Shown here piece by piece: positions 5,679 through 50,831 of a DNA stretch of 64,000 nucleotides (its first letter is position 1; every line of letters starts with the position of its first letter). Location of the stretch: positions 3,777-67,776 of the forward strand of contig QIDH01000056.1 in NCBI GenBank assembly GCA_003229305.1, read 5' to 3'. A model generated the notes under the pieces. That model saw only the letters and a list, made by a program, of their open reading frames with translations. It did no database searches and had not been told where the DNA came from. The DNA is from Acidimicrobiia bacterium. Its GTDB lineage: Bacteria > Actinomycetota > Acidimicrobiia > Spongiisociales > Spongiisociaceae. Both the position numbers and the translations under genes were made by a program.

Positions 5679-5689
5679 GGTTGGTGGAT

Positions 5690-13324: not shown

Positions 13325-13348
13325 CGGCAACCTTCCGAGGAGGCGAGA

Positions 13349-30186: not shown

Positions 30187-30187
30187 G

Positions 30188-33840: not shown

Positions 33841-34433
33841 CCAAGACGGTTCGTTACGGCGTCATCGGATTCGTGGCCATAGCGGTCGCAATCCTGATCG
33901 CCGTGGTGGACAGCCGATTCGGAGTCGATCCGACCAGGTTCGGGTCGCAGTTGATGGGACGAGAAACCCCTGACGTCGAACTGGTGCTGCTTGGATCGGA
34001 CGAAACCGTTTCATTGCTGGACATCGGTGACGCGAACGACGTGACCGTCATCAACTTCTTCGCTTCATGGTGCATCCAGTGCCGCTTCGAACACCCAGAC
34101 CTGCTCGCCACGTCCGACATCTACGCAGACCGGGGTGTGCAATTCGTCGGGATCTCCTTTCAAGACCAGGAGTCCGCTTCGATCGCCTTCCTCGACGAGC
34201 TCGGCTGGGGAGAAGAATTCATTTACACCAGGGACCCTGGATCGATCGCGGCAATCGAATTCGGCGTATTCGGAATCCCTGAGACATTCTTCATCCGAGA
34301 TGGCCAAATCGTCGGACGCCAGATCGGCCAAACGACGGCGCTGAGACTTTCCGAGGCCATCGAGTCCATATTGGATGGTGACGAAATCGGTGCCGAGGTA
34401 GTCGGCGACCAAACTCAACAGCAGGGCCAATAG
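33837..34433 (+). CDS. ccmG: thiol:disulfide interchange protein CcmG/DsbE (copy 1)
   Basis: ATG 33837 forms an ATGA overlap with the upstream gene. TM anchor; VTVINFFASWCIQCRFEHP; GVFGIPETFFI. Confidence 0.8.
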   Translation: MTKTVRYGVIGFVAIAVAILIAVVDSRFGVDPTRFGSQLMGRETPDVELVLLGSDETVSLLDIGDANDVTVINFFASWCIQCRFEHPDLLATSDIYADRGVQFVGISFQDQESASIAFLDELGWGEEFIYTRDPGSIAAIEFGVFGIPETFFIRDGQIVGRQIGQTTALRLSEAIESILDGDEIGAEVVGDQTQQQGQ

Positions 34434-34450: not shown

Positions 34451-35515
34451 TCAGCTCTCTGCCAACTCCTGACTCCTGGCAATCACGCTGTCCAAGACAT
34501 TGCTGGCCGCTCCTGAGTCGATGGCCTTGGCCGCAATCGTGGCTGCCTCGGCGAACTCGTTCGCAATTCCCGCCGAGACCAGGCCGAGTGCGGCGTTGAT
34601 GACCGAAATGTCCCTCCTCGGCCCAGGATCGCCTGCCAGAACCGACCTGAGGATTGCGACGTTTTCGTCAGGCGTGCCACCCAATATCGAATCCAGCGGC
34701 GCCCTCGGGACGCCGAAGTCTTCAGGCGTGACCTCGGCCTGGCTCAGCTCACCGTCATCATGCAGACGCCAGATCGACGTTGTCCCGCTGATACTCAGTT
34801 CGTCCAGCCCGTCGTGCCCATGGAACACAAATGCCCTTCTGGCCCCCAAGTCGGCGAGCACGCTCATCATGCGGCCGGCCATCGATCCGTCGGATACGCC
34901 GACGGCCAAATTAAGCGCTCCAGCAGGGTTACACAACGGTCCGAGAAAGTTGAACACGGTGCGGATCCCGAGCTGACGCCGGACCGGACCTGCATGGCGC
35001 ATGGCGGGGTGGTAGACCGGCGCAAGAAAGAAGGCGTACCCGGTCTTCCTGAATATCTCGGCGGTCTTGTCTGCTGGGAGATCGACAACGACCCCGGCCG
35101 CCTCGAGGACATCGGCAGATCCACACAGCGACGAGGCCGACCGGTTGCCGTGTTTGGCGACCTTGGCTCCAGCTCCTGCCGCGATCAGCGAAGCGGTCGT
35201 GGAAATGTTGAAGGTTCCAGACCTGTCTCCTCCGGTTCCAACTATGTCGACGAGGTTTGGCGTGTCGAGGTCAACGGCCACGGCAGCAGAGCGCATCGCT
35301 TCGACCAGCCCGGTCATCTCTTCGACTGTCTCCCCCTTGATCCGAAGTGAGACAATCAATGCGGCGATTTGAGCCTCGGTGGCCATTCCGTCCATGATCT
35401 CGGTCATAGCCGCCCTGGCGTGGGGCCGGGTCAGCGACTCGCCGGCACTCAAGGCGGCCAGTGTGTCGGCCCAGGCGAAGCTAGACATGGGAAGGGAGGC
35501 TAGTCGCGTTAGCAT
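34451..35515 (-). CDS. trpD: anthranilate phosphoribosyltransferase
   Basis: 354 aa. VDIVGTGGDRSGTFNISTTA, KHGNRSASSLCGSADVLEA, NFLGPLCNPA. Confidence 0.9.
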   Translation of the reverse strand: MLTRLASLPMSSFAWADTLAALSAGESLTRPHARAAMTEIMDGMATEAQIAALIVSLRIKGETVEEMTGLVEAMRSAAVAVDLDTPNLVDIVGTGGDRSGTFNISTTASLIAAGAGAKVAKHGNRSASSLCGSADVLEAAGVVVDLPADKTAEIFRKTGYAFFLAPVYHPAMRHAGPVRRQLGIRTVFNFLGPLCNPAGALNLAVGVSDGSMAGRMMSVLADLGARRAFVFHGHDGLDELSISGTTSIWRLHDDGELSQAEVTPEDFGVPRAPLDSILGGTPDENVAILRSVLAGDPGPRRDISVINAALGLVSAGIANEFAEAATIAAKAIDSGAASNVLDSVIARSQELAES

Positions 35516-35544: not shown

Positions 35545-36009
35545 GTGACCCGACCTCTCTACTTCGCCTACACGGCGCACATTTCGCCGAAGCGCCTGAC
35601 TGAACTCGTTCCGAACGCAGAATTTCAGTTCATCGCCCACCTTCCAGAGACTCGGATGTCGTTTCCGATCGAGGATTCGACGTGGGAAGGAGGCCTTCCT
35701 TCAGTCCACCCGGAGGAGGGCAGCACGGTATGGGGGGCAGTGTTCTCGATCGCCCCAGCCGACCTCGACAGGCTCAACGAAGCCGAAGCTCTGGAGGGTC
35801 GAGCACCGATCGAGACCTTCAAGGCGGTCGACCGGGAAGGTCACAGCCATGAGATCATCACCCACGCAGACGCTCGCGCGCGGAACGGTGGAGATCACGC
35901 TCCGTCCCGTGCATACATGGAAATGGTCGTGGATGGCGCAAAACACTGGGGCCTGCCAACCGGGTGGGTGGCCGGGCTAGAGGAATATCTGGAGGATCCG
36001 CTCTTTTAG
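35545..36009 (+). CDS. gamma-glutamylcyclotransferase-like (AIG2/GGACT fold) protein
   Basis: LYFAYTAHISPKRL start and the ...GSTVWGAVFSI... pattern. Confidence 0.55.
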   Translation: MTRPLYFAYTAHISPKRLTELVPNAEFQFIAHLPETRMSFPIEDSTWEGGLPSVHPEEGSTVWGAVFSIAPADLDRLNEAEALEGRAPIETFKAVDREGHSHEIITHADARARNGGDHAPSRAYMEMVVDGAKHWGLPTGWVAGLEEYLEDPLF

Positions 36010-36099: not shown

Positions 36100-36738
36100 C
36101 TATGCGGGCGCGTCTTCTGTGTGGAAGAGCCGGAATAAGCCCCAGGCTATGGCGGCGCCGATGAACGGGGCGGTCAGGTACACCCACAGATCGGTACCTC
36201 TTGCACCCACGATCGCCGGGCCGAGCGTTCTGGCCGGGTTCACCGAGGCCCCCGAGATTGCGATCCCACCAAGGTGTACCGCAACCAATGTGAGCGATAT
36301 CGCCATCGCAGCAACCTTGGGAGCCCTCACCGTGCTGACCAGGATCACCAGCACAAAGATGGCAGTGAGCACGATCTCGAGAAAGAACGCAGTGGACGTA
36401 TCTCCGCCTGGAACGGTGGCCGTACTGGCGACCACGTCCTGGTTGGCCGCAACCAAGATGCCGAGCGAACCGAGCAAGGCACCGACCAGCTGACCGATCC
36501 AATAGCCGATGAGGTCGGTGGTGTCCGTGCGCTTATCAAGCCACATCGCCAACGTCACAGCCGGATTGAAGTGGCCGCCTGAGATATCACCAACGGCGAA
36601 AATCGCCGCCATCAGGGCCAGACCGAAACCGAACGCAATCTGAACTGTGTCCCCTCCTGACGTCACAATCGAAAGCGAACCGACAAAGACCAGAATGAAG
36701 GTCCCGATCAGCTCGGCCAGATACTTGTTGATCACCAT
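36100..36738 (-). CDS. aquaporin (MIP family)
   Basis: Two NPA boxes (HFNPAVTLAMW, SVNPARTLGPAI). ATG 36738 is preceded by a GGGAGGGAG Shine-Dalgarno; the ORF-track start at 36879 is rejected. Confidence 0.85.
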   Translation of the reverse strand: MVINKYLAELIGTFILVFVGSLSIVTSGGDTVQIAFGFGLALMAAIFAVGDISGGHFNPAVTLAMWLDKRTDTTDLIGYWIGQLVGALLGSLGILVAANQDVVASTATVPGGDTSTAFFLEIVLTAIFVLVILVSTVRAPKVAAMAISLTLVAVHLGGIAISGASVNPARTLGPAIVGARGTDLWVYLTAPFIGAAIAWGLFRLFHTEDAPA

Positions 36739-36866
36739 GTGTGGTGTCTCCCTCCCTAGGGTTACCGATCCTTTTGACCAGTCGACATTGCAAAGAGTTT
36801 CGCAACATCGGCCTTCAGATTGGCGGATATCCGAGCGCCTACCATGCCTCCAATGAGGCGACCCCA

Positions 36867-37295
36867 TTGAATGATTCACGAGACGGCACGTCCGGGCTGC
36901 GCAATGCCCGCTGGTGGGCTGTCCTGATCGGTGCCGTCGCCGGCCTCTTTTTCAACTTCTTGATGGCACTGCTCGTATTTCTGGGCGCATTGTTGATGCA
37001 GGTCGCACAGACCGACCTCGTCCCCCTGGCCATTCTGGCGCTTTCGCTTTTCGCCGGGTTGGCTTTCGCCGGATACGTCGCCGGTCGACTCACGTCCGAC
37101 CACAATCCGGGGTTCCACGGCAACCTGGCCGGCATGGCGCTGTACGCGATTGTGGCAGTCCTCGGAATCTTCGCCGGAAGCCCTGTGAACCCCTTCACCT
37201 TGACCATTTTCTCCTTGGTAGCCGCCATCATCGGATTCGCAGGAGGGGTCCTCGGCGGCCGCCCGCGCTCCGAACCGCAGCGGCGGAGCGGATAG
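36867..37295 (+). CDS. hypothetical four-helix membrane protein (TTG 36867 proposed)
   Basis: Hydrophobic helices WWAVLIGAVAGLFFNFLMALLVFLGALL... The ORF-track start at 36741 would overlap the aquaporin start. Confidence 0.35.
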   Translation: MNDSRDGTSGLRNARWWAVLIGAVAGLFFNFLMALLVFLGALLMQVAQTDLVPLAILALSLFAGLAFAGYVAGRLTSDHNPGFHGNLAGMALYAIVAVLGIFAGSPVNPFTLTIFSLVAAIIGFAGGVLGGRPRSEPQRRSG

Positions 37296-37372
37296 CCTGC
37301 CGAGCTTGGCCGCCCGCCCCAACCCTCAAGGGTCGCTTGACGTGCTCGGCGTCCACGCGGACCTCAAAGGTT

Positions 37373-37388
37373 TGTGAACAGAATCACA
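37373..37388. promoter_or_regulatory. perfect CRP-type palindrome TGTGA-N6-TCACA
   Basis: TGTGAACAGAATCACA is read directly. It lies 184-199 nt upstream of the tetrahaem cytochrome ATG, in a lower-GC spacer. Confidence 0.4.
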
Positions 37389-37571
37389 ATGTGACCTTCG
37401 ACCCTAGCTACAGCGGCCCGTCAAGCAAAGGATTTGCATAGACCGTAGTTTGGAAAACGGACCGGAGATAGGCCAATCGGACCGGTTCTAGATGGGCCGA
37501 TCCTAAGTTTGGCGTCCCAACCAAGAGCTTGCCAAAAGGGGACCAAATACCTCTGAAGGGGTGAGAGAAGG

Positions 37572-38072
37572 ATGGAGCGAGTACGGGCATTGGTGAGAGC
37601 AATAAAGCGCCGTCGGCTTTCCGTTGTGCTGGTGATCGGACTTCTTACATTAGGAGTCGTCGGAGGCGGCTACGCCATACAAGAGAACGCTGGGTTCAGT
37701 GGCCAGACTGCAGTCGGGGACCACGACTGGTGGCAGGATATCGGAACGAACGCGTTCTGTGAAAACTGCCATACAGGTGTCGCAGGAGATATCGCTGCTG
37801 GTCCGCACGTAAGCACAGGTTTGTCGACTTGTAGCGTTTGTCACACACCAGGTGGTTCCGACCATGCTGCGGCTTCGGCAGAGTGCACGGATTGCCATGG
37901 ATCTGAAGGCGATGAGATCGCCTCGCAGACCGAGGCGCACACTGGAATACTGGCAGATCTAGGCGAAACTGCCACGGCCGCCAGTCAGACGTGCCAGTCG
38001 TGCCATACTCACGTCGAAGTCAATATTACCGCCACGGCACAGCCTCCAATCGAACTGATAATGGGCAACTAG
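37572..38072 (+). CDS. membrane-anchored tetrahaem c-type cytochrome
   Basis: 166 aa. N-terminal helix LSVVLVIGLLTLGVVGGG; four CXXCH motifs (CENCH, CSVCH, CTDCH, CQSCH). GAGAAGGA Shine-Dalgarno before the ATG. Confidence 0.8.
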   Translation: MERVRALVRAIKRRRLSVVLVIGLLTLGVVGGGYAIQENAGFSGQTAVGDHDWWQDIGTNAFCENCHTGVAGDIAAGPHVSTGLSTCSVCHTPGGSDHAAASAECTDCHGSEGDEIASQTEAHTGILADLGETATAASQTCQSCHTHVEVNITATAQPPIELIMGN

Positions 38073-38269
38073 CGTCCATGCTCGGTTGGTGCATGCATTA
38101 GAGGGGGCGTCGTGGAAACGGCCCTTGTGGCGAGTCTTTGGTTCTTCGGTGCGGTGTTACGACACACCGAACGAGTCGCAATGGCGACTATTGAGGGCGC
38201 ACCCGCTGAGCGGCAACGAACAGGGAAGGGCACAAGGTCACCCGCTCGCCGGGTGGCCTTTCCACGCAT

Positions 38270-39406
38270 ATGCGCCTAGCCTTGGTTCAACGAGTTGTCC
38301 GAAGATCAGGCTGGAATCGTGCACGATCCCAGCCTGATCGAGAAAGCTTGAGAGCCTCGGTGTCATCATCTGAAACGGACCTTCCCAACAGCGAAGTCGG
38401 CCCAGACAATGGCCGTTCCTCCAGGGCTCGATGGGTCGACGTTTCGATTGTTGGGGTAGCGGTTCTGGTGGCGGCGGCTTGGTTCCTCTTCATTCGGGAC
38501 GGCGAGCCCGCTGGACCGCTTGCACCTGTTTTGGAGGCGGTGATCGAAGAGCCGATCTCTGGCACCGTGGTCGCTACCGATTGGTCTTCGCCCGCCGCCG
38601 TCGCCGTTGACGGAGACACCATTTACGTTCTCGACACCGGCAACAACAGGATCCTATCGATGGACCGTGACGGGGTTGTAGATGGCATCGTTTGCGAAAC
38701 TGACGCGTGCGCCCTGCTACTCGACACTCCCCAGGACATGGAGATCCATGAGGGTCTGTTCTACGTGGCGAATACCGAGAGAGGGCAGGTGAACGTTGTC
38801 GATCGCGCCGGAACCGTATTACGCACATACGAGCTTCCGGCCGGACAAGGCGACGCACCCCGTGCGACTGGTGTTCACGTGGCGCCGAATGGCGTTGTGT
38901 ACGTGTCAGACGGTACCTCAGGGAGAGTCGCGATATTCGAGCCAGACGGTGAGTTCAGCCAGTATTTCGGCAACGACACCGTCGGGATCTTCGAGTTCAC
39001 CGATCCGACGGGCCTGACGCTCGATGAGGACGGCAACCTGTACGTTGCTGAGTTCTCGCTCGGTATGGTTCGAAAGATCTCGCCTGTTGGACGCGAGCTC
39101 GCCATCTTCTCGATGATGGGTGGCGTAACCAGGGCGTCCGAGGCGTCGGATCTCGTCATCGATGACAACGGCTCCCTGTATCTGGCCGACTACAAACGGT
39201 CTGTTGTGCACGTGTTTTCGAGAGCAGCCCGCTACCTCGGCATCGTAGGCCTGGTCGACGCCTCCCGACCGGACTCACCGATTGCCCTGCTTCGCCCCGA
39301 GGGGCTGGCGGCGGACGGCAACGAGATCATCGTCATCGACTCGAGACGCGGCCTACAGATCTATACCATCGATCCGGACTATTTCGTGTTCAAACGAGCG
39401 GAGTAG
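38270..39406 (+). CDS. NHL-repeat beta-propeller protein with N-terminal TM helix
   Basis: Six repeats of the type IYVLDTGNNRILSMDRDG / VYVSDGTSGRVAIFEPDG / LYVAEFSLGMVRKISPVG. TM segment VSIVGVAVLVAAAWFLFI. Start codon uncertain. Confidence 0.75.
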   Translation: MRLALVQRVVRRSGWNRARSQPDRESLRASVSSSETDLPNSEVGPDNGRSSRARWVDVSIVGVAVLVAAAWFLFIRDGEPAGPLAPVLEAVIEEPISGTVVATDWSSPAAVAVDGDTIYVLDTGNNRILSMDRDGVVDGIVCETDACALLLDTPQDMEIHEGLFYVANTERGQVNVVDRAGTVLRTYELPAGQGDAPRATGVHVAPNGVVYVSDGTSGRVAIFEPDGEFSQYFGNDTVGIFEFTDPTGLTLDEDGNLYVAEFSLGMVRKISPVGRELAIFSMMGGVTRASEASDLVIDDNGSLYLADYKRSVVHVFSRAARYLGIVGLVDASRPDSPIALLRPEGLAADGNEIIVIDSRRGLQIYTIDPDYFVFKRAE

Positions 39407-39474
39407 TCCCAACCACCCGAGATTCTGAACGAAGGGTCGATCAGGGCTCAGGCCGGGACCGTTGGAACGGCCGA

Positions 39475-40956
39475 TCACATACCGTCCAGTTCCGCATGGC
39501 AGCTCGCGCAGGATCGCTCCCGCCATTTCAGGACATCGTATGGATGCTCGAATTCCAGGCCACTGCCCTCGAGGTCGAGTAGCACTCCATTTGTGCCGAG
39601 GCCCTGTCCGATGATGAGGTGACACAAATTGCATTCGTTGGAGATCACCTCACCGTCCTGATCGGCTTTCTCACCATCGTGGCATCTGAAGCACCCCTCC
39701 CATGAAAGGTGCCCAATGTTGTATTGCCTGACCCGGTAGTCGGTCTTCATCTCTGGGAAGAAGTTGACGTCATAGATGTCGATCAACACTCGAGCTGCTT
39801 GCTCGATCTCCGCTGGATACCTATCGGTGGCGTCCGGGTACTCGGCCTCGTAGAAATCATCGAGTCCGTCCGGGATCCCCTGATGGGCGGCATCACGATC
39901 CTCGTAGCTGTCGAGAAGGACCTGCATGGCGATGTCCTTGATCTCGGGGAGCACATCCGGGATCCGTCCGTCGGCTAGAGCATTGTTGATCGACCGGGCA
40001 GCGGGCTCCAGCGGGTGGGCGGGCCGGTTGTGACAGTCGAGACAGTCGAAACGCCGGATTTCGGTGTCTGGGTCGTTCAGCCGAGGGATGTAGTCACCCG
40101 GAGTTGTGTAGATGCGCTCAATCCCGTCCTCGTCGATCACCCGCACCCAAGGGATGTCCTGGAGCTCGTGATCCGTGGCTATGTACTCGACGACCGTGCC
40201 GCCGCTGGTATGCCAGTGCACGCCACTGGGTGCATCTGACGCGGATCCAGCACCACCGAGATCGAAAAGGAAGTTCACCGTCCACGGGCTACTCGCATCG
40301 TCCAGGCTGTAGTACGTGGTGGTCCGTAGCTTCGTCCCCCACAAATTGTCCCTCCAGTGACACTCCTCGCACACCTGAGCTGCGGATCTCATCTCGATCG
40401 GTGTCTGCACTGGGCGATCGTACGAGTCCATCAGCACGCCCCAGAGCTGTTTCATCCCATTCACCTTGGCCTGGAGATACGCCTCGGTCCCCTGACCGAT
40501 GTGGCACTCGACGCACTTCACTCTTGCATGAGCCGACTCTTGCAGAGCCACCGCCTCAGGCTCCATTGGCGTGTGGCAGGCGTCGCCGCAGAACGACGTA
40601 GAGTCGGTTGCTTCATACGCCTTGAACCCGATGAACCCGACCACGGCCACACCGACCACGCTCAGAGAGAGGAAGAGCCATAGGCTGCGCATGTATTGCG
40701 GATCGGTCGGCTCTACTCGAAGCGTGAATCGTACCTTGTGTCCTCGCTTGCGTGCTGATACGACCTGGATGCGAATGGCAAGCAGAAAGAGGATCACACC
40801 TAGGCCGATCACCGCTGGCAGAGCGATGAACGTGATCAACGACCGGTAGGGGTTTTCTGTCTCCGCTGTGAAGTCCTGGACGACCAGGAAGACGAAGGCC
40901 ATGACGCCGGCCACGACGGTTGCGGCACCGACTGCTGCGAGCGGGTGTCGGTGCAA
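39475..40956 (-). CDS. multihaem c-type cytochrome with three N-terminal TM helices (NapC/NirT-like), 7 haem motifs
   Basis: 493 aa. CGDACH (CX3CH), CVECH, CEECH, CLDCH, CFRCH, CNLCH, CASCH. First region FCGDACHTPMEPEAVALQESAHARVKCVECHIG resembles NapC/NrfH-type quinol dehydrogenases. TTG start. Confidence 0.85.
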   Translation of the reverse strand: MHRHPLAAVGAATVVAGVMAFVFLVVQDFTAETENPYRSLITFIALPAVIGLGVILFLLAIRIQVVSARKRGHKVRFTLRVEPTDPQYMRSLWLFLSLSVVGVAVVGFIGFKAYEATDSTSFCGDACHTPMEPEAVALQESAHARVKCVECHIGQGTEAYLQAKVNGMKQLWGVLMDSYDRPVQTPIEMRSAAQVCEECHWRDNLWGTKLRTTTYYSLDDASSPWTVNFLFDLGGAGSASDAPSGVHWHTSGGTVVEYIATDHELQDIPWVRVIDEDGIERIYTTPGDYIPRLNDPDTEIRRFDCLDCHNRPAHPLEPAARSINNALADGRIPDVLPEIKDIAMQVLLDSYEDRDAAHQGIPDGLDDFYEAEYPDATDRYPAEIEQAARVLIDIYDVNFFPEMKTDYRVRQYNIGHLSWEGCFRCHDGEKADQDGEVISNECNLCHLIIGQGLGTNGVLLDLEGSGLEFEHPYDVLKWRERSCASCHAELDGM

Positions 40957-41289
40957 GGAGATGACGGGGCGAGAGGCCTCGTCATCCGGCGGATCTACAG
41001 GGTTCCGATCGTCGATGATGTGTTCCTTCCCTCGTCCGTCATGAGGTGTTTCTGGGTCGACTCAATTTGCTTTGGCGAGCAACTCCCTACGTGTTCGCCT
41101 CCTAGCCTCTCCACAATTCAATAGTACGACTGATACCTACTGATTGTACTACGTCGCCTAGCAAGCCATTTACGGTAACCATGGAGCTATTTGATGCGGA
41201 GTTCGCCCCGGTAGCTCTCCTACCAACAGGAGAACGTGGCACCAATGTTTGACAACGCGAGAGATTCATATGCTGCATTGCGGACGAGT

Positions 41290-41784
41290 TCATCGACCAT
41301 CCTGGGGGCGGGCTCTGGCTTTGCGTACCCGACGTACCTCTGAGAGCGCCAGGAGGCCAAGTATTGCCATCGTTCCAAGTGCGAGCCTGAGTTGGGTGCC
41401 AGGTTCAAGAGGCACGGAACTTCTCTCCGTGTCGAACTCGACATACCTGCTTGGCTGGATAGCCACGATGTACTCGTCACTTGATGGAGGAATGGTCGTC
41501 TTGGGCGCCGACAGTTCGGCGAGTGCATGCACGTACTCGGCAAGAACCACTACTTGGTCCTGGTTGAGCGCGGTGGTGAACCCTGGCATGTCTCCGATAC
41601 CCAGCCGGATGATCTCCACGAGCTGGTCGTTGGCGAACGGCACGTTGATTGGCATTGCCGAGGCACCTTCACCAGGAGCACCGTGGCAGGCGGCGCAGCT
41701 CGCGGCATCGTCAGGGTTGTTGACGAACGTCTCGGTACAGCGCGGATGACGCGAGAGATCCTCAACAAGGTCTTGCCTGATCAC
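41290..41784 (-). CDS. monohaem class I cytochrome c with C-terminal TM anchor, no N-terminal signal (possibly a truncated QcrC-like remnant)
   Basis: CAACHG plus distal GDMPGF. C-terminal helix LALGTMAILGLLAL followed by RRVRKARAR. A stop lies two codons upstream of the GTG start; no export signal. Confidence 0.5.
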   Translation of the reverse strand: MIRQDLVEDLSRHPRCTETFVNNPDDAASCAACHGAPGEGASAMPINVPFANDQLVEIIRLGIGDMPGFTTALNQDQVVVLAEYVHALAELSAPKTTIPPSSDEYIVAIQPSRYVEFDTERSSVPLEPGTQLRLALGTMAILGLLALSEVRRVRKARARPQDGR

Positions 41785-41834
41785 TGGTCATTCCTGCTCA
41801 GGGAGGTGATCCTCTACTGCTTCATCATCCTGGG
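41745..41834 (+). pseudogene. 5' fragment of a cytochrome b (QcrB-type) gene
   Basis: MTREILNKVLPDHWSFLLREVILYCFIILG matches the actinobacterial QcrB N-terminus (…[24 protein letters not shown]…, from memory) in about 16 of 24 positions. Similarity then ends, and no continuation exists in any frame. Confidence 0.5.
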
Positions 41835-42187
41835 CGAAGGCGTCTTCGGCCCAGCCATAGGGGCGGGTACGGATTCTGAACAGATGTCAGACACGTGGTC
41901 CAAGCAGTGGTGTTCGCCGGCATCGGCAAGATGCCATCAATGCCGGGTGTCCTCACCGAGATACAGGTCTAGGAAGTCATCGACTATATCCGGCGGGTCC
42001 AGGGAATCGGCTGGCGAAGGCAGCAAGCAGGCGCCGGTCAGGGCGACGCGAACTCGTGTCCATCGAGAGTTCTGGCGGACAGGCTCCGGGCGAATCCACC
42101 CCCAAATGTTCTACTCCCCGTGATATGATTCGCGTCACGACTCCTACGATGTCGGGCGTGCTCGATGAGGGGGTGACGGTTGTGAAA

Positions 42188-42664
42188 ATGGGTACATGGC
42201 TGGTCCTTTCTCTGCTTCTGTTCGGTGTCACAGCGTGTTCCGATGGCTCGGCCACCGCCAACTCCCTCGCGGCTACAGACAGTGACCTGGAAGGGGTCGA
42301 GTTCATCGTGCACCAGGTACCTGGGTGAGGATGCTGCCATGGGTGGGTCGGGTACCTGCAAGAACGTGGAGCCATCATCAATCTCTCCGATGATCCGCAG
42401 TTGGATGCTTTCAAAGCGGAGCACGGCGTCCCTGAAGGCGCCGAATCCTGCCACACTGCGCTGGTCGATGGATATGTTGTCGAAGGGCACGTTCCGGCCG
42501 AGGCGATCACAAAGCTTTTGAACGAGCGTCCCGACGCCGTTGGACTCGTCCTACCTGGAATGCCTGAGGATGCGCCTGGGATGGGGGGGGACCAGGAGAC
42601 GTGGGACGCTCAACCGGTCCTGTTGATCCAGAACGACGGACAGATGGTGCCCTTCGACTTCTGA
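42188..42664 (+). CDS. CopG/DUF411-family lipoprotein with one in-frame TGA (42326-42328) at the first Cys of CxCC: selenoprotein candidate or pseudogene
   Basis: ORFs 42056..42328 and 42401..42664 share one frame. The joined product MGTWLVLSLLLFGVTAC...IVHQVPG*GCCHGWVGYL...SCHTALVDGYVVEGHVPA...LPGMPEDAPGMGG is collinear with DUF411. Confidence 0.6.
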
Positions 42665-42716
42665 TCACCGACTCTCGGCATCCCGAGACAGGCTCCCCTA
42701 GAACCGGCCGCGCCGG

Positions 42717-43178
42717 TCAAGGCGCAGTCGTCGTCGTACCAGGAGGCAGGACCGTCGTGGTCGACGAAACGGGCGCAGTCGTTGTCGTACCAGGAGGCAG
42801 GACCGTCGTGGTCGACGAAACGGGCGCAGTCGTCGTCGTACCAGGAGGCAGGACCGTCGTGGTCGACGAAACGTCGGCTTGGACGTCGTGGCAGTCGATG
42901 CACGAGGCCGGACGGGCGGCATGCTCCCCGGGTTTCGGGGCGTGGCAATCCGAGCAGGTGTTGAGGTCCGCGTGCTCGTTGTGCGAGGGAAAGTGGCACT
43001 GTGCGCAGGCTGCATCGCCCTGCGTGACGAGATCGCGGTATTCGTGGGCGCCCGGTGCCGTCGAACCTTGCTGGGGATCCGAAACCGCCATGCCGACGAC
43101 GACCGTCAGCAAAAGAAAGAGGAGAGTGCCTCCGAAGACCATACCTGCCCTCGCCCAGCGTCGTGCTTCACCCCGCAC
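42717..43178 (-). CDS. membrane-anchored trihaem c-type cytochrome with Thr/Pro-rich repeat tail
   Basis: N-terminal helix MVFGGTLLFLLLTVVVGMAV; CAQCH, CSDCH, CIDCH; C-terminus is 3 x VSSTTTVLPPGTTTTAP. Confidence 0.8.
   Translation of the reverse strand: MRGEARRWARAGMVFGGTLLFLLLTVVVGMAVSDPQQGSTAPGAHEYRDLVTQGDAACAQCHFPSHNEHADLNTCSDCHAPKPGEHAARPASCIDCHDVQADVSSTTTVLPPGTTTTAPVSSTTTVLPPGTTTTAPVSSTTTVLPPGTTTTAP
42721..42873. repeat. 3 x 51-bp tandem repeat (one mismatch, at 42782)
   Basis: ggcgcagtcgtcgtcgtaccaggaggcaggaccgtcgtggtcgacgaaacg repeated head-to-tail at 42721, 42772 and 42823. Confidence 0.95.
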
Positions 43179-43714
43179 AACTCGGCCTCGGGTCGAGTGA
43201 CGCCCCGCAATGTCCGGCGTTTTGCAGAATCCGGTCTCCTAATGGCGGCGAACGGTGCAATGGACGAACCTCCCGCTCCAACGGTGTCTTGCAATGCGTA
43301 TGACACCATGGTCACACGCCTTCGATGACGACCAGGGTCGAACGGCACGATTCAGGATGGCCACTTCCGCCTCGTTGAAGACACGATCCAAGGTGATGTC
43401 GACAAGACCCGGCCCAGCGTTGAGCTAGCGCTGGACCCACCCAGGTGGACCCACGATTCGCGGGCAGAGCCTTCTGAGGCCACGTCACAACGGTTGTCGG
43501 ACAGCCGCAAGTGGGCATTGTGGCCCTACGGAAGTGTCGAGTTCTACTTCAGTATTTGAGAGTGAACACGAACCGTGGTGCAGGCAGCCTCTAGGCAGGT
43601 TGCGAGAGGTCGTATGGCCTCGGGGCAGAATCGAAGGATTCACACCGTGACACACATGGAAAGCCGATTGACGGAACCGGGGCGGCCGGTTCTTCAGGGC
43701 CCTGAGGAAACGGG

Positions 43715-45751
43715 ATGACCGCAATTATCGGTGCGGGCGCCGTTCTTGCTGCGTTCCTCGGATGCCTGGTTCTGGCGGTCAGAGGACTCACCGGCCTCTA
43801 CCGACCTCACACTGCGACACCAGGTCGGCTGCGGGCTCCGGTTCTTGTCATTTTGGCGGGTTCAGTCGTGTCCATGGGAGCACTGCAGGCTGCGCTCCTC
43901 GCTGACGATTTCTCGATTGCATATGTGGCCGATCACTCGGCATCCACGACGCCAACTCTCTTCAAGGTGGCATCGGCCTGGGGAGCACTTGCCGGAAGCA
44001 TCGTCCTCTGGGGCTTGGTGCTGGCGTTGTTCATCTGGACTGTATGGCGCAGTTTTCGATCTCGTGATGAAGACAACCAACTGTGGGCAGGAGCACTCGG
44101 GGTCATGGGGATCGTCAGCCTCTTCTTCTTCGGGCTGATGCTGAGTGTCTCCAATCCGTTTCAGGTGTGCACCGCACCCGCCACAGTTGGTTGCCTGCAA
44201 TCAACCGGAGCCGTGTGGACGCCGGCACAGGCCGCGCTGGAGGGTCTTGGCCCCAACCCGTTACTCCAGAACCATTTCTTGATGGCTCTCCATCCCCCAC
44301 TTCTCTACGTGGGATATGTCGGACTCACGGTCCCATTTGCCTTTGCCATGGCGGCGCTCCTGATTGGCAAGGGTGGGGCAGCCTGGCTCGAGGCGTCGCG
44401 CTCGTGGACGCTCGTGGCCTGGAGCTTCCTCGGCCTGGGGATAGTGCTCGGCGGGCTCTGGTCATACGAAGTGCTCGGCTGGGGCGGCTATTGGGCATGG
44501 GATCCGGTGGAGAATGCATCGTTCATCCCCTGGCTCGTAGCAACCGCCTTCATCCACTCCTCCGTAGTCCAGAGAAGGAGAGGCATGCTGCAAGCATGGA
44601 ACTTCGTTCTGGTGATCCTGGCTTTCGCAGCGACCATCCTGGGAACCTTCCTCACCCGCTCTGGCATCGTCAACTCGGTACACAGCTTCTCCCAATCAGC
44701 CATCGGTCCTGTGTTGCTCTGGTTCCTTGCCTTCGTCCTGGTGGTCTCGTTCAGCGTTTTCGCCGCCCGCATCAACGAGGTGTCGTCTTCGCCGCGGCTC
44801 GATTCCATGTTGAGCCGGGAGGGGTTCTTCCTTCTCAACAACCTCGCCCTGACCGTGTTCGCCTTCGTCGTAGTTCTGGGAACCCTATATCCCCTGTTTC
44901 TCGAGGCGGCCACGGGCGCCAAGGCAGGTGTCGGGGCCCCATTCTTCAATCGGTTTGCCATACCGATATCTCTGGCGCTGCTACTGACGATGGCATTCGG
45001 AACCATCGCTCCATGGAGGGCGGCGTCCCCTGCGCTGCTTTGGGAGCGGATCCGTGCTCCGATCGTCATCTCCCTGGCGGCGGGAGCACTTGCGGTTCTA
45101 ATGCGCTATCGCGATGGATACCTCGTCCTCGGCGTTGTCGCAGGCGTCCTTGTGATCACAACCGCGGTGCACAGGCTGTTCGAGACCGCCCGTCGCCGAT
45201 CTGTCAAGACCGACGAGAACATAGCCGTCGCTGCGGTCATGGTCCTTCGTGGCGATCGGCACTATTGGAGCGGACAGCTCTCTCACATCGGTGTAGCCAT
45301 CCTCGCGCTCGGCATCGCGCTTTCCTCGAACCTGGTTGTCAGCGGGACCTTCACAGTGAGGCAGTTCGAGTCTGTGGCCTTCGCCAGCATGGAACTCACA
45401 TACTTCGAGCCCGTGATCCGCCAAGAACCGAACAGAGAGATCCGTGGCGCGAGGATCGTGGTTTCTCGAGACGGGAAGATGGTCGGGGTACTCGAACCGG
45501 GGATCAACGACTACTTCATGCAAGACCAGACGATCGGCACGCCTGCGGTCGCGACTTCGTTCGGTGGCGACCTCTACTTGACCCTCGAACGGTTCGATAC
45601 GGACAGTGTCATATTCAAGGCCATCTGGTTCCCATATGTCTGGCTCGTTTGGGCGGGAGGTTTGCTGATCGGACTGGCTCCGGCGTGGGCTTGGTTGGCA
45701 CGCCGACCCTTCCGGGTCTTGAAACAAGTCGATGAGTCGGCAAGACAATGA
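43715..45751 (+). CDS. ccmF: cytochrome c haem lyase subunit CcmF (copy 2, NrfE-like paralogue)
   Basis: 678 aa, collinear with copy 1. Identical WWD block [20 protein letters not shown]. Confidence 0.9.
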   Translation: [678 protein letters not shown]

Positions 45752-46146
45752 AAAATCGGCTCTACCTCGTCTTGATCGGTGTGTTCTCGTTCATCGTCGT
45801 CATCGGCGTTTTCGCCGGTGATCCTTCCCCTCAGGACCGGGCTCAGGCCATAGGGTCGCGGATCATGTGTCCGGTCTGTCAGGGATCGGCGATTGCTGAC
45901 TCACCGTCGGAGACGGCAAGGACGATGATGGCCAAGGTCGAGGAGCTGGTCACCGACGGGTGGACGGACGACCAAGTACTCGTCTACTTTCGCGATAGAT
46001 ACGGCGAGAACATCATCCTCGACCCTGTCTTCGGTGGCAAGACCCTGCTCGTCTGGCTACTTCCGTTCGCAGCATTCGGTGTGGGTGCGTGGATGATTGT
46101 GCGCCGCAAGCGGACGATGCCATCGATCGTCAAGGACCCATCATGA
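45748..46146 (+). CDS. ccmH: CcmH (copy 2)
   Basis: ATGA overlap with ccmF2. IMCPVCQGSAI CxxC motif and C-terminal helix. Confidence 0.8.
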   Translation: MKNRLYLVLIGVFSFIVVIGVFAGDPSPQDRAQAIGSRIMCPVCQGSAIADSPSETARTMMAKVEELVTDGWTDDQVLVYFRDRYGENIILDPVFGGKTLLVWLLPFAAFGVGAWMIVRRKRTMPSIVKDPS

Positions 46147-46958
46147 GCGAGAAGCGGGCCAGAGAACGTCTCGAATACAAGCGAAGACAAGTCGCTCGGG
46201 ATATGGACGAGCTGGACGGTCAGGTTGAAGACGACCAGGTTGAGTCCGATACGGCAGAACGGCTTCGCTGGGTCTACGAAGAGGAACTGACCGACATCGA
46301 CGAAGCTCTTTCGACCATCGTCGACCCTCCGGTGAGAGAGGTGGCGCATCCGGAGGACAGCCAGCCTGTGCGGGGGTTCTCGTTTGCCCAGGTGGCAAGG
46401 GCAGGTGCCATGCTCGCGGTATTGACCGGACTCATCATCTGGGCCGGCACAGGTTCGGGAACGGACCCATCTGGCAGCGAGGACTCTTCACCTCTGGCGA
46501 CCGTGGAGGCGGGCGCGATCGACATTGGTTCGATGTCGGACGCGGAACTCGAGGACGCTCTCGCCAGTTTCCCCGAGTCCGCAGTGGTGCGTCTGGCTCT
46601 GGCCGACCGCCATCTTGCTCAGGGTGACCAACAAAGGGCTCTAGAACACTACCTGGTTGTCGTCACCGGAGAGGCATCGCCACAAGACAAGAGCCGGGCT
46701 CTTGCGAGAGTTGGCTACCTGTCATACGCCACGGGCCAGCATAAGTCGGCGAGGGAAACTCTGCTGGAGAGCCTCTATCTGGACGAGGACAACACCGAGG
46801 CAATGCTCTACCTGGGATATGTCCTCTTGAACGGTTTTGGGGATGAGGCTGCAGCCATCCCCTACTTCGAGAGAGTCATAGCTGATCCGTCCATGCCTCC
46901 CGAGGTGGTGGAGGCGGTATCCGCTGTCGTGGCCAATGCTCGAGGAGGACAGGGATGA
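46143..46958 (+). CDS. CcmI/CycH-like TPR protein (copy 2)
   Basis: ATG 46143 overlaps the ccmH2 stop. Same coiled-coil / TM / TPR layout as copy 1. Confidence 0.55.
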   Translation: MSEKRARERLEYKRRQVARDMDELDGQVEDDQVESDTAERLRWVYEEELTDIDEALSTIVDPPVREVAHPEDSQPVRGFSFAQVARAGAMLAVLTGLIIWAGTGSGTDPSGSEDSSPLATVEAGAIDIGSMSDAELEDALASFPESAVVRLALADRHLAQGDQQRALEHYLVVVTGEASPQDKSRALARVGYLSYATGQHKSARETLLESLYLDEDNTEAMLYLGYVLLNGFGDEAAAIPYFERVIADPSMPPEVVEAVSAVVANARGGQG

Positions 46959-47530
46959 TCAAGCGTTCATCTGATCTACAGCCAAGACGTGGCAGGCTTC
47001 GCACCTGGATCGCCATCGGCCTCATTGCCGGTGTGGTTGGGACAATGGTCATCGTATTCGCCGGCCGCTTCGGGATGGACGTGAGACTCGTTGCCTCTCC
47101 GTTGGTTGGCCGTCAGGCTCCTTCCCTCGAGTTCGACTATCTGGACCGACCCGGAACGCTCGACACCGACGACCTCAACGGTCAGGTGGTCGTCATGAAC
47201 TTCTGGGCGTCATGGTGCCTTGCCTGTCGCGTCGAACATCCCATTCTGATGGCGGCCTCTGAGAAGTACGCCGACCAAGGGGTCCGATTCATAGGTGTGC
47301 AGCATCAAGACCTGGTCAACTCGGGAAAGGCCTTCCTCGATGAGCTCGGATGGGGCGTGAACTTCGACTATGTGATCGGAGACGGTTCAGGAGCCGCGAT
47401 TGAGTACGGCATATACGGCATCCCTGAGACGTTCGTCATCGACGCCAACGGGACAATCACAATGAAGATCACCGGGCCAGTGACAACCAAGTCGCTCGGT
47501 ACGGCCATTGAGGCCGCTCTCGTCGGGTAA
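46955..47530 (+). CDS. ccmG: CcmG/DsbE thiol:disulfide interchange protein (copy 2)
   Basis: ATGA overlap; VVVMNFWASWCLACRVEHP; GIYGIPETFVI. Confidence 0.8.
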   Translation: MIKRSSDLQPRRGRLRTWIAIGLIAGVVGTMVIVFAGRFGMDVRLVASPLVGRQAPSLEFDYLDRPGTLDTDDLNGQVVVMNFWASWCLACRVEHPILMAASEKYADQGVRFIGVQHQDLVNSGKAFLDELGWGVNFDYVIGDGSGAAIEYGIYGIPETFVIDANGTITMKITGPVTTKSLGTAIEAALVG

Positions 47531-47584
47531 TCGAAACAGGCTGCGCCGGCCTCGTCGGAGAGGAACACGGCTACGATGAAGATT

Positions 47585-47951
47585 GACGAGTTCACTGGGC
47601 GACCGCGGCTGGTTTCAGTCGAGGAAAGTCCGGACTCCCAAGGGCATGGAGCTGGGTAACACCCAGGCGGGGCGACCCGACGGAAAGTGCCACAGAAACC
47701 AGACCGCCGATGGCCTTCGGGCACAGGCAAGGGTGAAACGGTGGTGTAAGAGACCACCAGCATCTCGGGTGACCGATGTGGCTGGTAAACCCCTCCAGGA
47801 GCAAGGCCAAACAGGGACATCGGCGGCCCGCCGATCAAGTCCCGGGTAGGCCGCACCGAGGTCGAGCGGCAACGCCGGCCCCAGATGGATGGTCGCTGCC
47901 TGTCGAGCATCGCTCGGCAGGTACAGAATCCGGCTTACAGGTGAACTCGTC
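47585..47951 (+). ncRNA. rnpB: RNase P RNA, bacterial type A
   Basis: Universal blocks GAGGAAAGTCCGG, ACAGAAACCAGACCGCC, AGGGTGAAACGGTG, GTAAGAG.CACCAG, CCGGGTAGGC and ACAGAATCCGGCTTA. The 5' end GACGAGTTCAC pairs with the 3' end GTGAACTCGTC (P1). Confidence 0.92.
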
Positions 47952-47964
47952 GCGCCTGTCAGGA

Positions 47965-48559: not shown

Positions 48560-49117
48560 ATGACGACAGATAACGAAACATTGCCCAGGCGCAACACCAC
48601 GCTGATCAAGCTGGGACTGGCAGCGGGAACCCTTGGTCTGATCGGGCTTGTCGCCCTGATCGGCTTCGGCGGCTCCAGTGGACAATCTGCCACCAACGCA
48701 AGCGGTGATCCGGCTCCAGCAATTACGCTGAACTACATCGACGGTACTCAGAGCGCGCTGTCTGACTTGACGGGCACGCCGGTCATGCTGAATTTCTTTG
48801 CCGACTGGTGCCCGGCCTGCGTCGCCGAGATGCCTGATCTCGAGATAATCAACCAGGAATTTGGCAATAACCTGAGGATCATCGGCCTCGACCAGAGCAC
48901 CAACGACGCTGGCATGCGAGAGCTCCTGGTCGACACGGGAATCACATACGACGTAGCTCTGGACCGCGACGGACAGATTTACGCGGCGTTCGGAGGGTTG
49001 AGCATGCCGACATCCGTGTTCCTGTACCCGGACGGCACAGTAGCGAGGGTTCACTCTGGGGTGACTTTCGAAAACCAGCTCCGCGACATACTGAACGAGC
49101 TCTTCTTCACGGGCTAG
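48560..49117 (+). CDS. TlpA/ResA-like thiol-disulfide oxidoreductase, membrane-anchored
   Basis: TM helix LIKLGLAAGTLGLIGLVALIGF; PVMLNFFADWCPACVAEMP thioredoxin motif. Confidence 0.75.
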   Translation: MTTDNETLPRRNTTLIKLGLAAGTLGLIGLVALIGFGGSSGQSATNASGDPAPAITLNYIDGTQSALSDLTGTPVMLNFFADWCPACVAEMPDLEIINQEFGNNLRIIGLDQSTNDAGMRELLVDTGITYDVALDRDGQIYAAFGGLSMPTSVFLYPDGTVARVHSGVTFENQLRDILNELFFTG

Positions 49118-49147: not shown

Positions 49148-49855
49148 GTGACCACTACCAACAACAATCTTCTCGTAGCAGACCAACAACACCTCGCCTG
49201 GCTGGCGAGAAGCTTCGGACGTCCGGACTATCTGCCCTTGAGCAGGCGAGATCTGGATCTGCTGATGGACGCCAGCGAGGTCGTGAAGCGCTACCCAGGC
49301 ACTCACCTCTTCAAAGAAGGAGAAACGGCCACTGCTGCGTTTTTGATCGAGGAAGGAAAGGTCGACCTTTATAGGGGAAAGGGAGGCCAGCGCAGGGTGG
49401 TGGCCAGGGTCGGTCCTGGGTCGGTCATCGGGGACATCGCCATGTTCGCGGACACACCATATATTTCGTCCGCCAAGGCAATCGGCCCTGTGGTGGCCCT
49501 GCGCTTCGAACGCGACCGTCTCATCCCCAGACTGGCCCAGCATCCGGCCATCTGCCTGAGATGGCTCGTTGCCGGACTGCGTCAATTGGAAGATACCCAG
49601 AGGCGAGTCATTCATCTCATGCACAAAACCGTCAAAGCCCAGGTGGCCGATCTCCTGTCAGAAGAGGTGGACGGCCAGCAGGAGGTCAGACTCTCGCAGG
49701 CATCGATGGCCACGCTCCTAGGAGCCAGCCGCCAATCGGTCAACGAGGCGCTTGGCGAGTTGAGATCGGTTGGGGCGATAGAGACCGGTTATCGCATCGT
49801 GCGAATCATCGATCGAGCGGCGTTGCTCAAAGCCGCTGCCAGCGACAGCCGGTGA
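49148..49855 (+). CDS. Crp/Fnr-family transcriptional regulator
   Basis: cNMP-binding beta-roll (FKEGETATAAFLIEEGKVDLY...GPGSVIGDIAMF) and C-terminal HTH (SQASMATLLGASRQSVNEALGELRSVGAIE). No FNR-type N-terminal Cys cluster. Confidence 0.8.
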   Translation: MTTTNNNLLVADQQHLAWLARSFGRPDYLPLSRRDLDLLMDASEVVKRYPGTHLFKEGETATAAFLIEEGKVDLYRGKGGQRRVVARVGPGSVIGDIAMFADTPYISSAKAIGPVVALRFERDRLIPRLAQHPAICLRWLVAGLRQLEDTQRRVIHLMHKTVKAQVADLLSEEVDGQQEVRLSQASMATLLGASRQSVNEALGELRSVGAIETGYRIVRIIDRAALLKAAASDSR

Positions 49856-49928: not shown

Positions 49929-50831
49929 ATGATCAGTACAGCCGCTCTCGCCCTGGCCTACACAGCCGGATTGGTCGCCACGATCAATCCATGCGGATTC
50001 GCCATGCTGCCGGTCTACCTCGGGTTCTTCATGGAGGCGGACGATGGCGAGGCCACCGACCGCGCCGCATCCCTCGCACGTGCTCTCAAAGTGGGCACCG
50101 CGGTTTCAGCAGGCTTCATCGTAGTTTTCGGAGTCGCCGGTCTCCTTCTCAACATCGGCCTGCAGGCGGCAGTCTTCCGCACTGTGCTGCCATGGCTGGC
50201 CATGGCCATCGGGGTCGGTGTCCTGGTTCTCGGGGTCGCGATGCTGCGCGGCTACTCGATGAACGTGAGGCTGCCAGGTGTTCGTGGAGGCAAGAAGGAG
50301 CGCACCCTTCGATCAATGTTCGGTTTTGGCATTACATACGCCATCGCATCTCTGTCCTGCACCCTTCCAGTGTTCCTCTCTCTGGTCACCGCCAATTTTG
50401 CCCAGCAGTCCGTGACGGCCGGCACACTGACGTTCATCGTGTATGGCCTTGGCATGGCCACGGTGCTGCTCTACCTCAGCGTCGCAATGGCATTCGGACG
50501 CGACTCGATCATCAAGCGGATGCGGAGCGCAGCCCGGCACCTGAACACCGTATCCGGAGTGATCCTTATCACGGCCGGCCTGTTCATCATCTGGTACTGG
50601 TCGACGATCCTCATCCAGGGAGCGGTGGTAGCGGGCCAATCCGGCGTCGTGCGGTGGGTAGATCGCACTTCGGCCGGCCTCACCAACTATGTCGGCGACA
50701 ACCGCAGGCTGGTCATCGCAGTCACCATCGGAACCATCGGGGCGACGGTTCTCTACATCATCGCCAAGACGACGCTTGGCCAGCAGAGCGATCCAGATCG
50801 TGACGCGGTCGCGCCTCGTCAAGGCCGCTGA
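49929..50831 (+). CDS. ccdA: cytochrome c biogenesis thiol-reductant transporter CcdA (DsbD family)
   Basis: LVATINPCGFAMLPVYLGFF, with the second conserved Cys in IASLSCTLPVFL; polytopic. Confidence 0.8.
   Translation: MISTAALALAYTAGLVATINPCGFAMLPVYLGFFMEADDGEATDRAASLARALKVGTAVSAGFIVVFGVAGLLLNIGLQAAVFRTVLPWLAMAIGVGVLVLGVAMLRGYSMNVRLPGVRGGKKERTLRSMFGFGITYAIASLSCTLPVFLSLVTANFAQQSVTAGTLTFIVYGLGMATVLLYLSVAMAFGRDSIIKRMRSAARHLNTVSGVILITAGLFIIWYWSTILIQGAVVAGQSGVVRWVDRTSAGLTNYVGDNRRLVIAVTIGTIGATVLYIIAKTTLGQQSDPDRDAVAPRQGR

Follow-up and report, generated by a model that had tools for sequence, protein, structure and literature searches.

A second CcmF-CcmH-CcmI-CcmG set on a cytochrome island of an Acidimicrobiia bacterium: a candidate accessory haem-lyase module

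A 64-kb stretch of DNA from an Acidimicrobiia bacterium (assembly GCA_003229305.1, contig QIDH01000056.1, positions 3,777-67,776 of the forward strand; hereafter the window) was found to carry two plus-strand gene sets for the haem-lyase part of System I cytochrome c maturation, set 1 (ccmF1-H1-I1-G1, 30607-34433) and set 2 (ccmF2-H2-I2-G2, 43715-47530). In System I, CcmE is charged with haem through CcmAB and CcmCD and, as holo-CcmE, delivers it to the WWD site of CcmF. The apocytochrome, whose cysteines CcmH and CcmG maintain in reduced form via electrons from CcdA, is presented by CcmI. The explanation favoured here, at a probability of roughly 0.55, is that set 2 functions as an accessory haem-lyase module of System I type within a portable cytochrome cassette that was inserted upstream of rnpB, the cassette consisting of an ImcH-type seven-haem quinol dehydrogenase, an anchored tetrahaem cytochrome (cyt4), an NHL propeller, an anchored trihaem cytochrome (cyt3), and CcmF2-H2-I2-G2. 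The genes of the two sets are listed below (TPR, tetratricopeptide repeat).

30607-32628, plus strand: ccmF1, Pfam Cytochrom_C_asm and CcmF_C
32621-33043, plus strand: ccmH1, Pfam CcmH
33040-33840, plus strand: ccmI1, TPR protein
33837-34433, plus strand: ccmG1, thioredoxin-like (Redoxin/AhpC-TSA)
43715-45751, plus strand: ccmF2, haem lyase subunit, Cytochrom_C_asm and CcmF_C (E 2e-55 and 3e-29)
45748-46146, plus strand: ccmH2, CcmH PF03918 (E 9e-28), thiol-redox motif CPVCQG
46143-46958, plus strand: ccmI2, predicted TPR apocytochrome chaperone, TPR_16 and further TPR matches at residues 150-265
46955-47530, plus strand: ccmG2, DsbE/ResA-like thioredoxin, Redoxin and AhpC-TSA (E 1e-17), WCLAC

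The open reading frames (ORFs) of set 2 were located exactly where the initial annotation had placed them, and they mirror set 1 in gene order and in start/stop overlaps. The junctions of set 1 overlap, in order, by ATGCCTGA, GTGA, and ATGA, and all three junctions of set 2 by ATGA; the genes within each set are evidently translationally coupled. Pairwise blastp comparison gave protein identities of 56% for F1/F2 (over 653 aa, E = 0), 41% for H1/H2 (E 3e-28), 27% for I1/I2 (E 4e-23), and 47% for G1/G2 (E 3e-48), and at the DNA level the two sets could be aligned in three patches only, at 66-67% identity. The motifs quoted in the initial annotation were all recovered from the translations: the WWD block is identical in F2 and F1, and WCxxC is present in both G copies (WCIQCRFEHP and WCLACRVEHP); CPVCQG occurs in both H1 and H2.

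Membership of the CcmF/NrfE haem-lyase superfamily was judged by the domains Cytochrom_C_asm and CcmF_C, the WWD motif, and four histidines (P-His1/2 and TM-His1/2). F2 possesses all of these; the Pfam E-values of F1 and F2 for the two domains range from 1e-29 to 1e-59, and the four conserved histidines (equivalents of H173, H261, H303, and H491) are kept in F2 and in 10 further members of its clade. CcmH2 qualifies as a CcmH by its domain and CXXC motif. CcmI2, in which a hydrophobic segment lies N-terminal to the TPR region and whose gene is coupled by ATGA to those of H2 and G2 inside the lyase operon, is predicted to be a CcmI from this architecture, and CcmG2 scored 105 bits against the NCBIfam dsbE model TIGR00385 (cut-off 123). 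Taken at the level of the translations, set 2 is intact and keeps all catalytic residues, and the two sets are, by their divergence, true and ancient paralogues. A recent segmental duplication or an assembly artefact, for which nothing more than the identical gene order speaks, can practically be dismissed: the near-identity in DNA that the initial annotation had named as its sign was not found, the patchy identity of about 66% rules it out, protein identities are 27-56%, and the sets lie in different supported clades.

These clades were obtained from neighbour-joining of 81 CcmF sequences and from a separate tree with 200 bootstraps (L-numbers denote loci fetched around CcmF relatives, and P-numbers relatives from protein searches). 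The neighbour-joining tree unites F2 with L001, with L002 and L026 as neighbours; all four fall inside the Acidimicrobiia radiation with F-H-I-G order, with E. coli NrfE far outside. Protein searches delimited an F2 orthologue group (P0002-P0012, 64-79% identity), after which identity drops to 61% or less; a metagenome scan with F2 returned no close relatives, the best matches being at 52-53%. With bootstrapping, the F2 clade (11 sequences) received 100% support, a wider clade adding L002, L026, P0013, P0017, and P0029 received 91%, and the F1 clade, whose members are always collinear with ccmABCDE, received 97%. Each of the two sets has a well-supported clade to itself, with separate orthologues in other assemblies, and H2 is closer to the H genes of other islands (62-70% identity) than to H1 (41%).

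The initial annotation had attributed to set 2 the logic of E. coli NrfEFG. As an analogous accessory set devoid of ccmABCDE the comparison stands, but no relation to NrfE was found. F1 and F2 do not differ in their distance to E. coli CcmF and NrfE (34-35%). Against the NrfE hidden Markov model TIGR03145 (cut-off 927 bits), F2 scored 383 and F1 371, and against NF007691 (cut-off 394 bits) the scores were 288 and 272; F2 thus neither exceeds a cut-off nor groups with NrfE in the trees. Since F2 is placed among Acidimicrobiia CcmF proteins and scores below these cut-offs, orthology with NrfE was ruled out, and F2 is best described as a lineage-specific Acidimicrobiia paralogue or xenologue.

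The genomic setting of set 2 was established by comparison with loci of F1 orthologues from other Acidimicrobiia, in which the order is thioredoxin, LGT, ccmABCDEFHIG, trpD, AIG2, MIP, a small gene, and rnpB, followed by TlpA-like, Crp, CcdA, and SRAP genes. The small gene directly abuts rnpB (identified by Rfam), with nothing between, in L174, L175, and L011, and by blastn L174 is collinear with the window from 24.1 to 37.0 kb and then skips to 47587. Because these relatives share the backbone and lack the 37.3-47.6 kb segment, the cytochromes and set 2 evidently arrived together, as one insertion just upstream of rnpB; an origin of set 2 by local duplication was rejected, set 2 having entered with the cytochromes on the insertion of about 10.3 kb. 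No direct or inverted repeats of at least 11 nt, integrase, or tRNA were found at the island borders, and third-codon-position GC content does not set the island apart from its surroundings. In addition to set 2, the island holds the following features.

37296-47586: inserted island of about 10.3 kb, bearing the cytochromes together with set 2 and bounded by a DUF3792-like gene and rnpB
37373-37388: perfect CRP/GlxR-type palindrome TGTGA-N6-TCACA, about 185 nt upstream of the cyt4 gene
37572-38072, plus strand: cyt4, membrane-anchored tetrahaem cytochrome c (4 CXXCH)
38270-39406, plus strand: NHL-repeat beta-propeller with N-terminal anchor (Pfam NHL, E 6e-23)
39475-40956, minus strand: ImcH-type seven-haem NapC/NirT-like quinol dehydrogenase (Pfam Cytochrom_NNT; homology up to 41061)
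41290-42011: decayed remnants, from tblastn of intact L168 genes against the window
41386-41706, minus strand: PKD-cytochrome c remnant, residues 312-418 only of a 454-aa protein
41701-42011, plus strand: cytochrome b/c fusion remnant, residues 3-46 and 505-563 of 563 aa
42401-42664, plus strand: small DUF411-like gene, 80% identical to the L170 DUF411 gene (L170 2266-2529)
42717-43178, minus strand: cyt3, anchored trihaem cytochrome c with a Thr/Pro-rich tail, divergent from ccmF2

Compared with L168, the intact genes of the island are ccmF2H2I2G2, cyt3, cyt4, the NHL gene, and the gene of the seven-haem protein. From the decayed Rieske/cytochrome b-type unit of the window, the Rieske gene is gone; an intact version is present in L168, and similar units occur in L167 and L002. 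Within the remnants, the ORF at 41290-41784 encodes a C-terminal fragment of the PKD-cytochrome c without a signal peptide, and about 460 internal codons of the cytochrome b/c fusion have been lost.

The linkage of set 2 to particular cytochromes was then assessed in its relatives. Every F2-clade locus with flanking DNA was counted, which gave 8 independent loci including the window; gene orders in the others are given below (FHIG, the genes ccmF-H-I-G; cyt, cytochrome).

L001: FHIG, cyt4, NHL, ImcH-like
L163 (152-kb contig): hydrogenase genes, cyt3-like, FHIG, cyt4, NHL, ImcH-like, gltBD
L165/L166: cyt3, ImcH-like, NHL and cyt4 (these two on the opposite strand), then FHIG
L167 (64% to F2): molybdenum oxidoreductase, Rieske, cyt b, cyt b/multihaem fusion, FHIG
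L168/L169: PKD-cyt c, cyt c, Rieske, cyt b/c, cyt3, FHIG, cyt4, NHL, ImcH-like, TatA
L170 (78% to F2): ccmC, ccmB, and ccmA on the opposite strand, DUF411, FHIG, 326-aa multihaem protein
L171: arginine genes, FHIG, cyt4, NHL, ImcH-like

The same trio of cyt4, NHL, and ImcH-type genes stands directly beside FHIG in six of the eight loci, the window included, which bears out the proposal of the initial annotation that set 2 is tied to its neighbouring cytochromes; a wide occurrence of the set away from cytochromes, the finding that would have spoken against that proposal, was not seen, as a multihaem cytochrome gene adjoins FHIG in 8/8. In L165 and the window the trio lies upstream of FHIG, whereas L001, L163, L168, and L171 have it downstream; the ImcH gene occurs on either strand, and the outer neighbours all differ (hydrogenase, thiamine transport, or arginine genes, a Rieske/cyt b cluster, rnpB). 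Orthologues of cyt4 adjoin the F2-clade sets of L001, L163, L165, L168, and L171, the NHL propeller gene is kept in the same islands, and cyt3 homologues occur upstream of F2 in L163, L165, and L168. No ccmA-E genes were found within 10 kb in L163, L165, or L167, and a lyase set lacking ccmABCDE in a cytochrome gene cluster, with the linkage kept across genomes, was seen in the window, L001, L163, L165, L168, and L171. In nearly all of the other CcmF loci (about 160), ccmABCE stands immediately upstream, and L002 and L130 are the only ones among them with an ImcH homologue alongside.

The ImcH-type protein was examined for the haem motifs that a special lyase might serve. It has three N-terminal transmembrane helices, CGDACH (a CX3CH site with Cys123 and Cys127), six CXXCH sites, and an NrfH-like core; a hydropathy scan of the shorter database version detected two of the three helices, the first being taken from the translation of the 493-aa ORF. 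The ImcH family is characterised by three transmembrane motifs, an atypical CX3CH by the membrane domain, and six CX2CH sites, the CX3CH being a trait of the family, and it occurs in 12 phyla (PMC6295460). The window protein (39475-40956) agrees with this description in its helices, CX3CH, six CXXCH, and NapC/NirT homology. CX3CH is the first site in 120/120 of its best homologues (from Acidimicrobiia, Zixibacteria, Acidobacteria, and others), and six CXXCH sites follow in all but one of them. Geobacter, a bearer of ImcH, uses System II, and the E. coli Ccm system matures CX3CH and CX4CH sites. Geobacter ImcH made in aerobically grown Shewanella oneidensis contained about 6.6 haems (bioRxiv 10.1101/2023.05.03.539133).

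In the island cytochromes, every Cys belongs to a CXXCH site except in the single CX3CH of the ImcH-type protein, and neither CXXCK nor a long-spaced haem motif was found. The parallel with the non-standard CXXCK haem drawn in the initial annotation was accordingly abandoned, as no linked non-CXXCH site of the NrfEFG or SirEFGH kind (CXXCK, CX15CH, or CX12NKGCH), beyond the reach of a general lyase, is present. A lyase that is motif-specific in the strict NrfEFG sense, with set 2 handling an ImcH CX3CH that set 1 cannot, would fit the retention of CX3CH by all ImcH homologues of the islands, and there are known cases of lyases dedicated to atypical motifs. It is nevertheless very unlikely, since the motif is family-wide, reaching Zixibacteria and Acidobacteria, and ImcH was matured in Shewanella; moreover, L179, a locus discussed below, has a CX3CH protein with no adjacent CcmF. 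CX3CH appears to be matured by generic systems, and a motif-driven need for a special lyase is unlikely.

A more promising seat of specialisation is CcmI, the most diverged component of the two sets (27% for I1/I2 against 56% for F1/F2). Between orthologues, the corresponding I/F identities are 51/73 and 45/59, so that the drop in I is steeper between I1 and I2. The I2 clade received 99% bootstrap support in a CcmI tree in which some distances are saturated. In addition, an orphan CcmI-like TPR gene (12899-13699; 31% to I2, E 1e-30) is present in L179, a more distant cluster encoding ImcH, a 5-haem PKD protein, a 15-haem protein, a cytochrome b-like protein, an NHL protein, and a tetrahaem cytochrome; the tree places the gene no more finely than within the broad I2-type group (61% support). 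The steep divergence of I1/I2 and this orphan gene point to apocytochrome recognition as the part of the lyase tied to the island substrates, and any specialisation is more likely to have come about through co-inheritance and a divergent CcmI than through special chemistry.

Several observations nevertheless weigh against a dedicated role, and they were considered together with the main rival explanation, in which set 2 is a redundant generalist xenologue, that is, the ordinary primary lyase of a donor lineage, carried along, functional, without substrate preference, and duplicating set 1. This is a possible explanation, if on the unlikely side. It is favoured by two loci, L170 from within the F2 clade and L026 from its sister group, in which FHIG is divergently adjacent to ccmABC(E), so that a general or primary lyase function is probably also within reach of the F2-type lineage, and by the membership of the wider clade described above. 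F2 itself shows no catalytic divergence, its clade-specific substitutions numbering only five and leaving the WWD block and the histidines untouched, and ccm genes adjoin multihaem cytochromes in many single-operon phyla (L036, L042, L054, L076, L080, and L130). The generic maturation of CX3CH weighs against a dedicated role as well, as does L179, where the trio stands without CcmF, CcmH, or CcmG within 10 kb and hence has no strict need of an adjacent lyase. None of the closest F1 orthologues comes from the same samples as the F2-carrying assemblies. Finally, a CRP-like operator lies upstream of cyt4 and none was found upstream of ccmF2, so that co-regulation is no more than possible.

A redundant copy would, however, be expected to decay, whereas the four lyase genes are intact and retain their motifs on an island where other genes have decayed. 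Linkage to the same trio has outlasted rearrangement in six genomes, CcmI2 is far more diverged than F2, beyond the drop between orthologues, and a CcmI-like gene has been kept as an orphan in L179. The intact lyase genes amid decay, the linkage through rearrangement, and the orphan CcmI favour dedication, and an accessory module of the cassette is therefore preferred to a redundant generalist.

The supply of haem and reductant to such a module was considered from the remaining genes of the window, which are listed below.

28031-28684, plus strand: ccmA, Pfam ABC_tran
28681-29355, plus strand: ccmB, Pfam CcmB
29352-30077, plus strand: ccmC, Pfam Cytochrom_C_asm
30070-30186, plus strand: ccmD, 38 aa, from translation and a small ORF at the same place in relatives
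about 30188-30607, plus strand: ccmE, Pfam CcmE, haem-binding histidine context VKHDEQY
34451-35515, minus strand: trpD
35545-36009, plus strand: AIG2-like gene
36100-36879, minus strand: MIP channel
36741-37295, plus strand: DUF3792-like small gene
47587-47953, plus strand: rnpB (RNase P RNA), Rfam RF00010, 286 bits; right edge of the island
48560-49117, plus strand: TlpA-like thioredoxin, Pfam
49148-49855, plus strand: Crp/FNR regulator, Pfam
49929-50831, plus strand: CcdA/DsbD_TM, Pfam

The ccmABCDE genes (28031-30607) are the only System I haem-export and haem-chaperone half in the window, no ccmA-E remnants were found in or near set 2, and the TlpA-like, Crp/FNR, and CcdA genes follow in the same order in L174 and L175. 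With one ccmABCDE, one ccdA, and two F-H-I-G sets, set 2 would have to draw both haem and reductant from the shared core: the two sets must presumably share ccmABCDE, as the initial annotation had supposed in deriving holo-CcmE for set 2 from the first operon, and set 2 must presumably also obtain reductant from the backbone CcdA. In the proposed mechanism, the single CcmABCD of the host would load haem onto CcmE, and holo-CcmE would hand it to either the resident CcmF1H1I1 or CcmF2H2I2, with CcdA keeping both CcmG1 and CcmG2 reduced. CcmI2 and CcmH2 would then present the anchored apocytochromes of the cassette (14 haem sites in three cytochromes) to the WWD site of CcmF2. Any substrate preference would probably stem from co-inheritance, possibly from co-expression, and from the strongly diverged CcmI2, and not from a special motif or altered catalysis.

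Accessory-lyase arrangements of this type are already known in other bacteria, and NrfEFG, SirEFGH, and the CcmF2 of anaerobic methanotrophic archaea (ANME) serve as precedents; set 2 would work like these, and appears to have arisen independently within the Acidimicrobiia. E. coli NrfEFG serves within System I as an accessory lyase that attaches the CXXCK haem of NrfA. Like set 2, it combines a CcmF-like protein, a CcmH-like protein, and a TPR chaperone beside the cytochrome substrate, lacks ccmABCDE, and depends on the core Ccm system for holo-CcmE; set 2 differs in being non-orthologous, in having no CXXCK substrate, and in possessing its own CcmG thioredoxin, which NrfEFG lacks. In Shewanella oneidensis, SirEFG and SirH form the lyase for the CX12NKGCH haem of the sulfite reductase SirA (PMC6976685). 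These are the same four parts (CcmF-, CcmH-, and CcmI-like proteins and a TlpA/DsbE-like thioredoxin), encoded in the cluster of the substrate, and in this make-up the Sir system, in which a CRP-type regulator is also involved, is closer to set 2 than NrfEFG is. Set 2, a lyase predicted from its genes, differs in that its substrates have no long-spaced motif, in its independent origin in the Acidimicrobiia CcmF radiation, and in its monoderm actinobacterial host.

In ANME, a CcmF2 paralogue is always found beside the giant S-layer multihaem cytochrome MHC-B (PMC9012536). The likeness to set 2 is that of a lineage-specific CcmF paralogue invariably linked to particular multihaem cytochromes, which in ANME serve extracellular electron transfer, and the reason proposed there is the nature of the substrate and not the motif only. 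The ANME case differs in that CcmF alone is duplicated, mostly with no CcmH, and not the whole F-H-I-G set, and the substrates of the window are small or medium-sized anchored cytochromes instead of giant ones. With canonical CcmFHI and CcmG of the Rhodobacter/Pseudomonas System I, set 2 shares the domains, the WWD motif, the four histidines, the CcmH CXXC, a TPR CcmI, and a thioredoxin CcmG, and F-H-I-G is the typical order of Acidimicrobiia operons; set 2 differs from the canonical system in being detached from ccmABCDE and located on an inserted island. The protein type that is probably its main substrate is known from Geobacter ImcH, which likewise has three transmembrane helices, CX3CH, six CXXCH, a NapC/NirT/NrfH-like core, and about 500 aa; the window protein differs in its actinobacterial host and in occurring together with an NHL protein and the anchored cyt3 and cyt4, and its function is predicted.

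Accessory haem lyases have so far been understood almost only through odd haem motifs (CXXCK and CX15CH). The retention of a full second F-H-I-G set beside cytochromes with ordinary motifs points to recognition by CcmI and CcmH as a further reason for lyase duplication, and the two sets with three small substrates in one genome form a concrete pair for swap experiments. A mobile, ImcH-based, and possibly extracellular electron-transfer cassette is also flagged in marine Acidimicrobiia, a Gram-positive lineage in which such pathways are little known. A bolder and rather doubtful extension is that monoderm Acidimicrobiia possess a self-contained, horizontally mobile cassette for electron export, of which CcmFHIG forms the maturation half. 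In this view ccmABCDE is dispensable once transfer has taken place and was lost or never carried, and the lyase, above all CcmI, must travel with the ImcH, tetrahaem, and trihaem cytochromes since the lyase of a recipient matures them poorly. If this were so, apocytochrome recognition, and not the haem motif, would be the barrier to the lateral spread of multihaem respiratory pathways.

Candidate regulatory sites were located in and around the island. The palindrome at 37373-37388 is the only perfect match in the 64 kb. Perfect or one-mismatch sites lie 126-135 nt upstream of the cyt4 orthologue in L001 (position 3922), L163 (13937), L168 (9742), and L169 (4585), and the other perfect matches in 2.3 Mb of fetched loci were only CENCH codons inside the cyt4 gene. 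Upstream of ccmF2, the motif CGTGACACA-NN-TG-N-A occurs at 43646-43660, 55-70 nt from the start; it is kept upstream of ccmF in L170 and L171, is degenerate in L165, and may be a promoter or an operator. A simple sigma-70 and terminator scan was uninformative.

Further observations concern individual genes. The Thr/Pro-rich tail of cyt3 is encoded by a 51-bp tandem repeat (3.0 copies, 98% identical, 42721-42873) specifying VSSTTTVLPPGTTTTAP three times, and may be a wall-spanning or glycosylated linker. The DUF411 gene stands between ccmA and the F2-type ccmF in L170, and its homology with the window takes in about 230 bp of upstream intergenic DNA; this likeness hints that the ancestor of the island may once have had ccmABC adjacent. 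At the right border, rnpB begins 56 nt past ccmG2. Four thioredoxin-like paralogues of CcmG/TlpA type were counted in 23 kb, one before ccmA (26795-27304), one in each lyase set (33837-34433 and 46955-47530), and one beside Crp and CcdA (48560-49117), and the stretch from the first of them to ccmA encodes an LGT-like membrane protein (27305-28003). System II is usual in the actinobacterial phylum; complete ccmABCEFHIG operons with the same F-H-I-G order were found outside the Acidimicrobiia in L017, L020, L023, and L027, from cultured or named actinobacteria (Tersicoccus, Haloechinothrix, Amycolatopsis, and Pseudonocardia). In L163, the immediate neighbours of the cassette are the genes of a NiFe hydrogenase with its cytochrome b subunit and the hyp maturation genes (479-9139), a context that hints at hydrogen-driven electron flow into the ImcH pathway.

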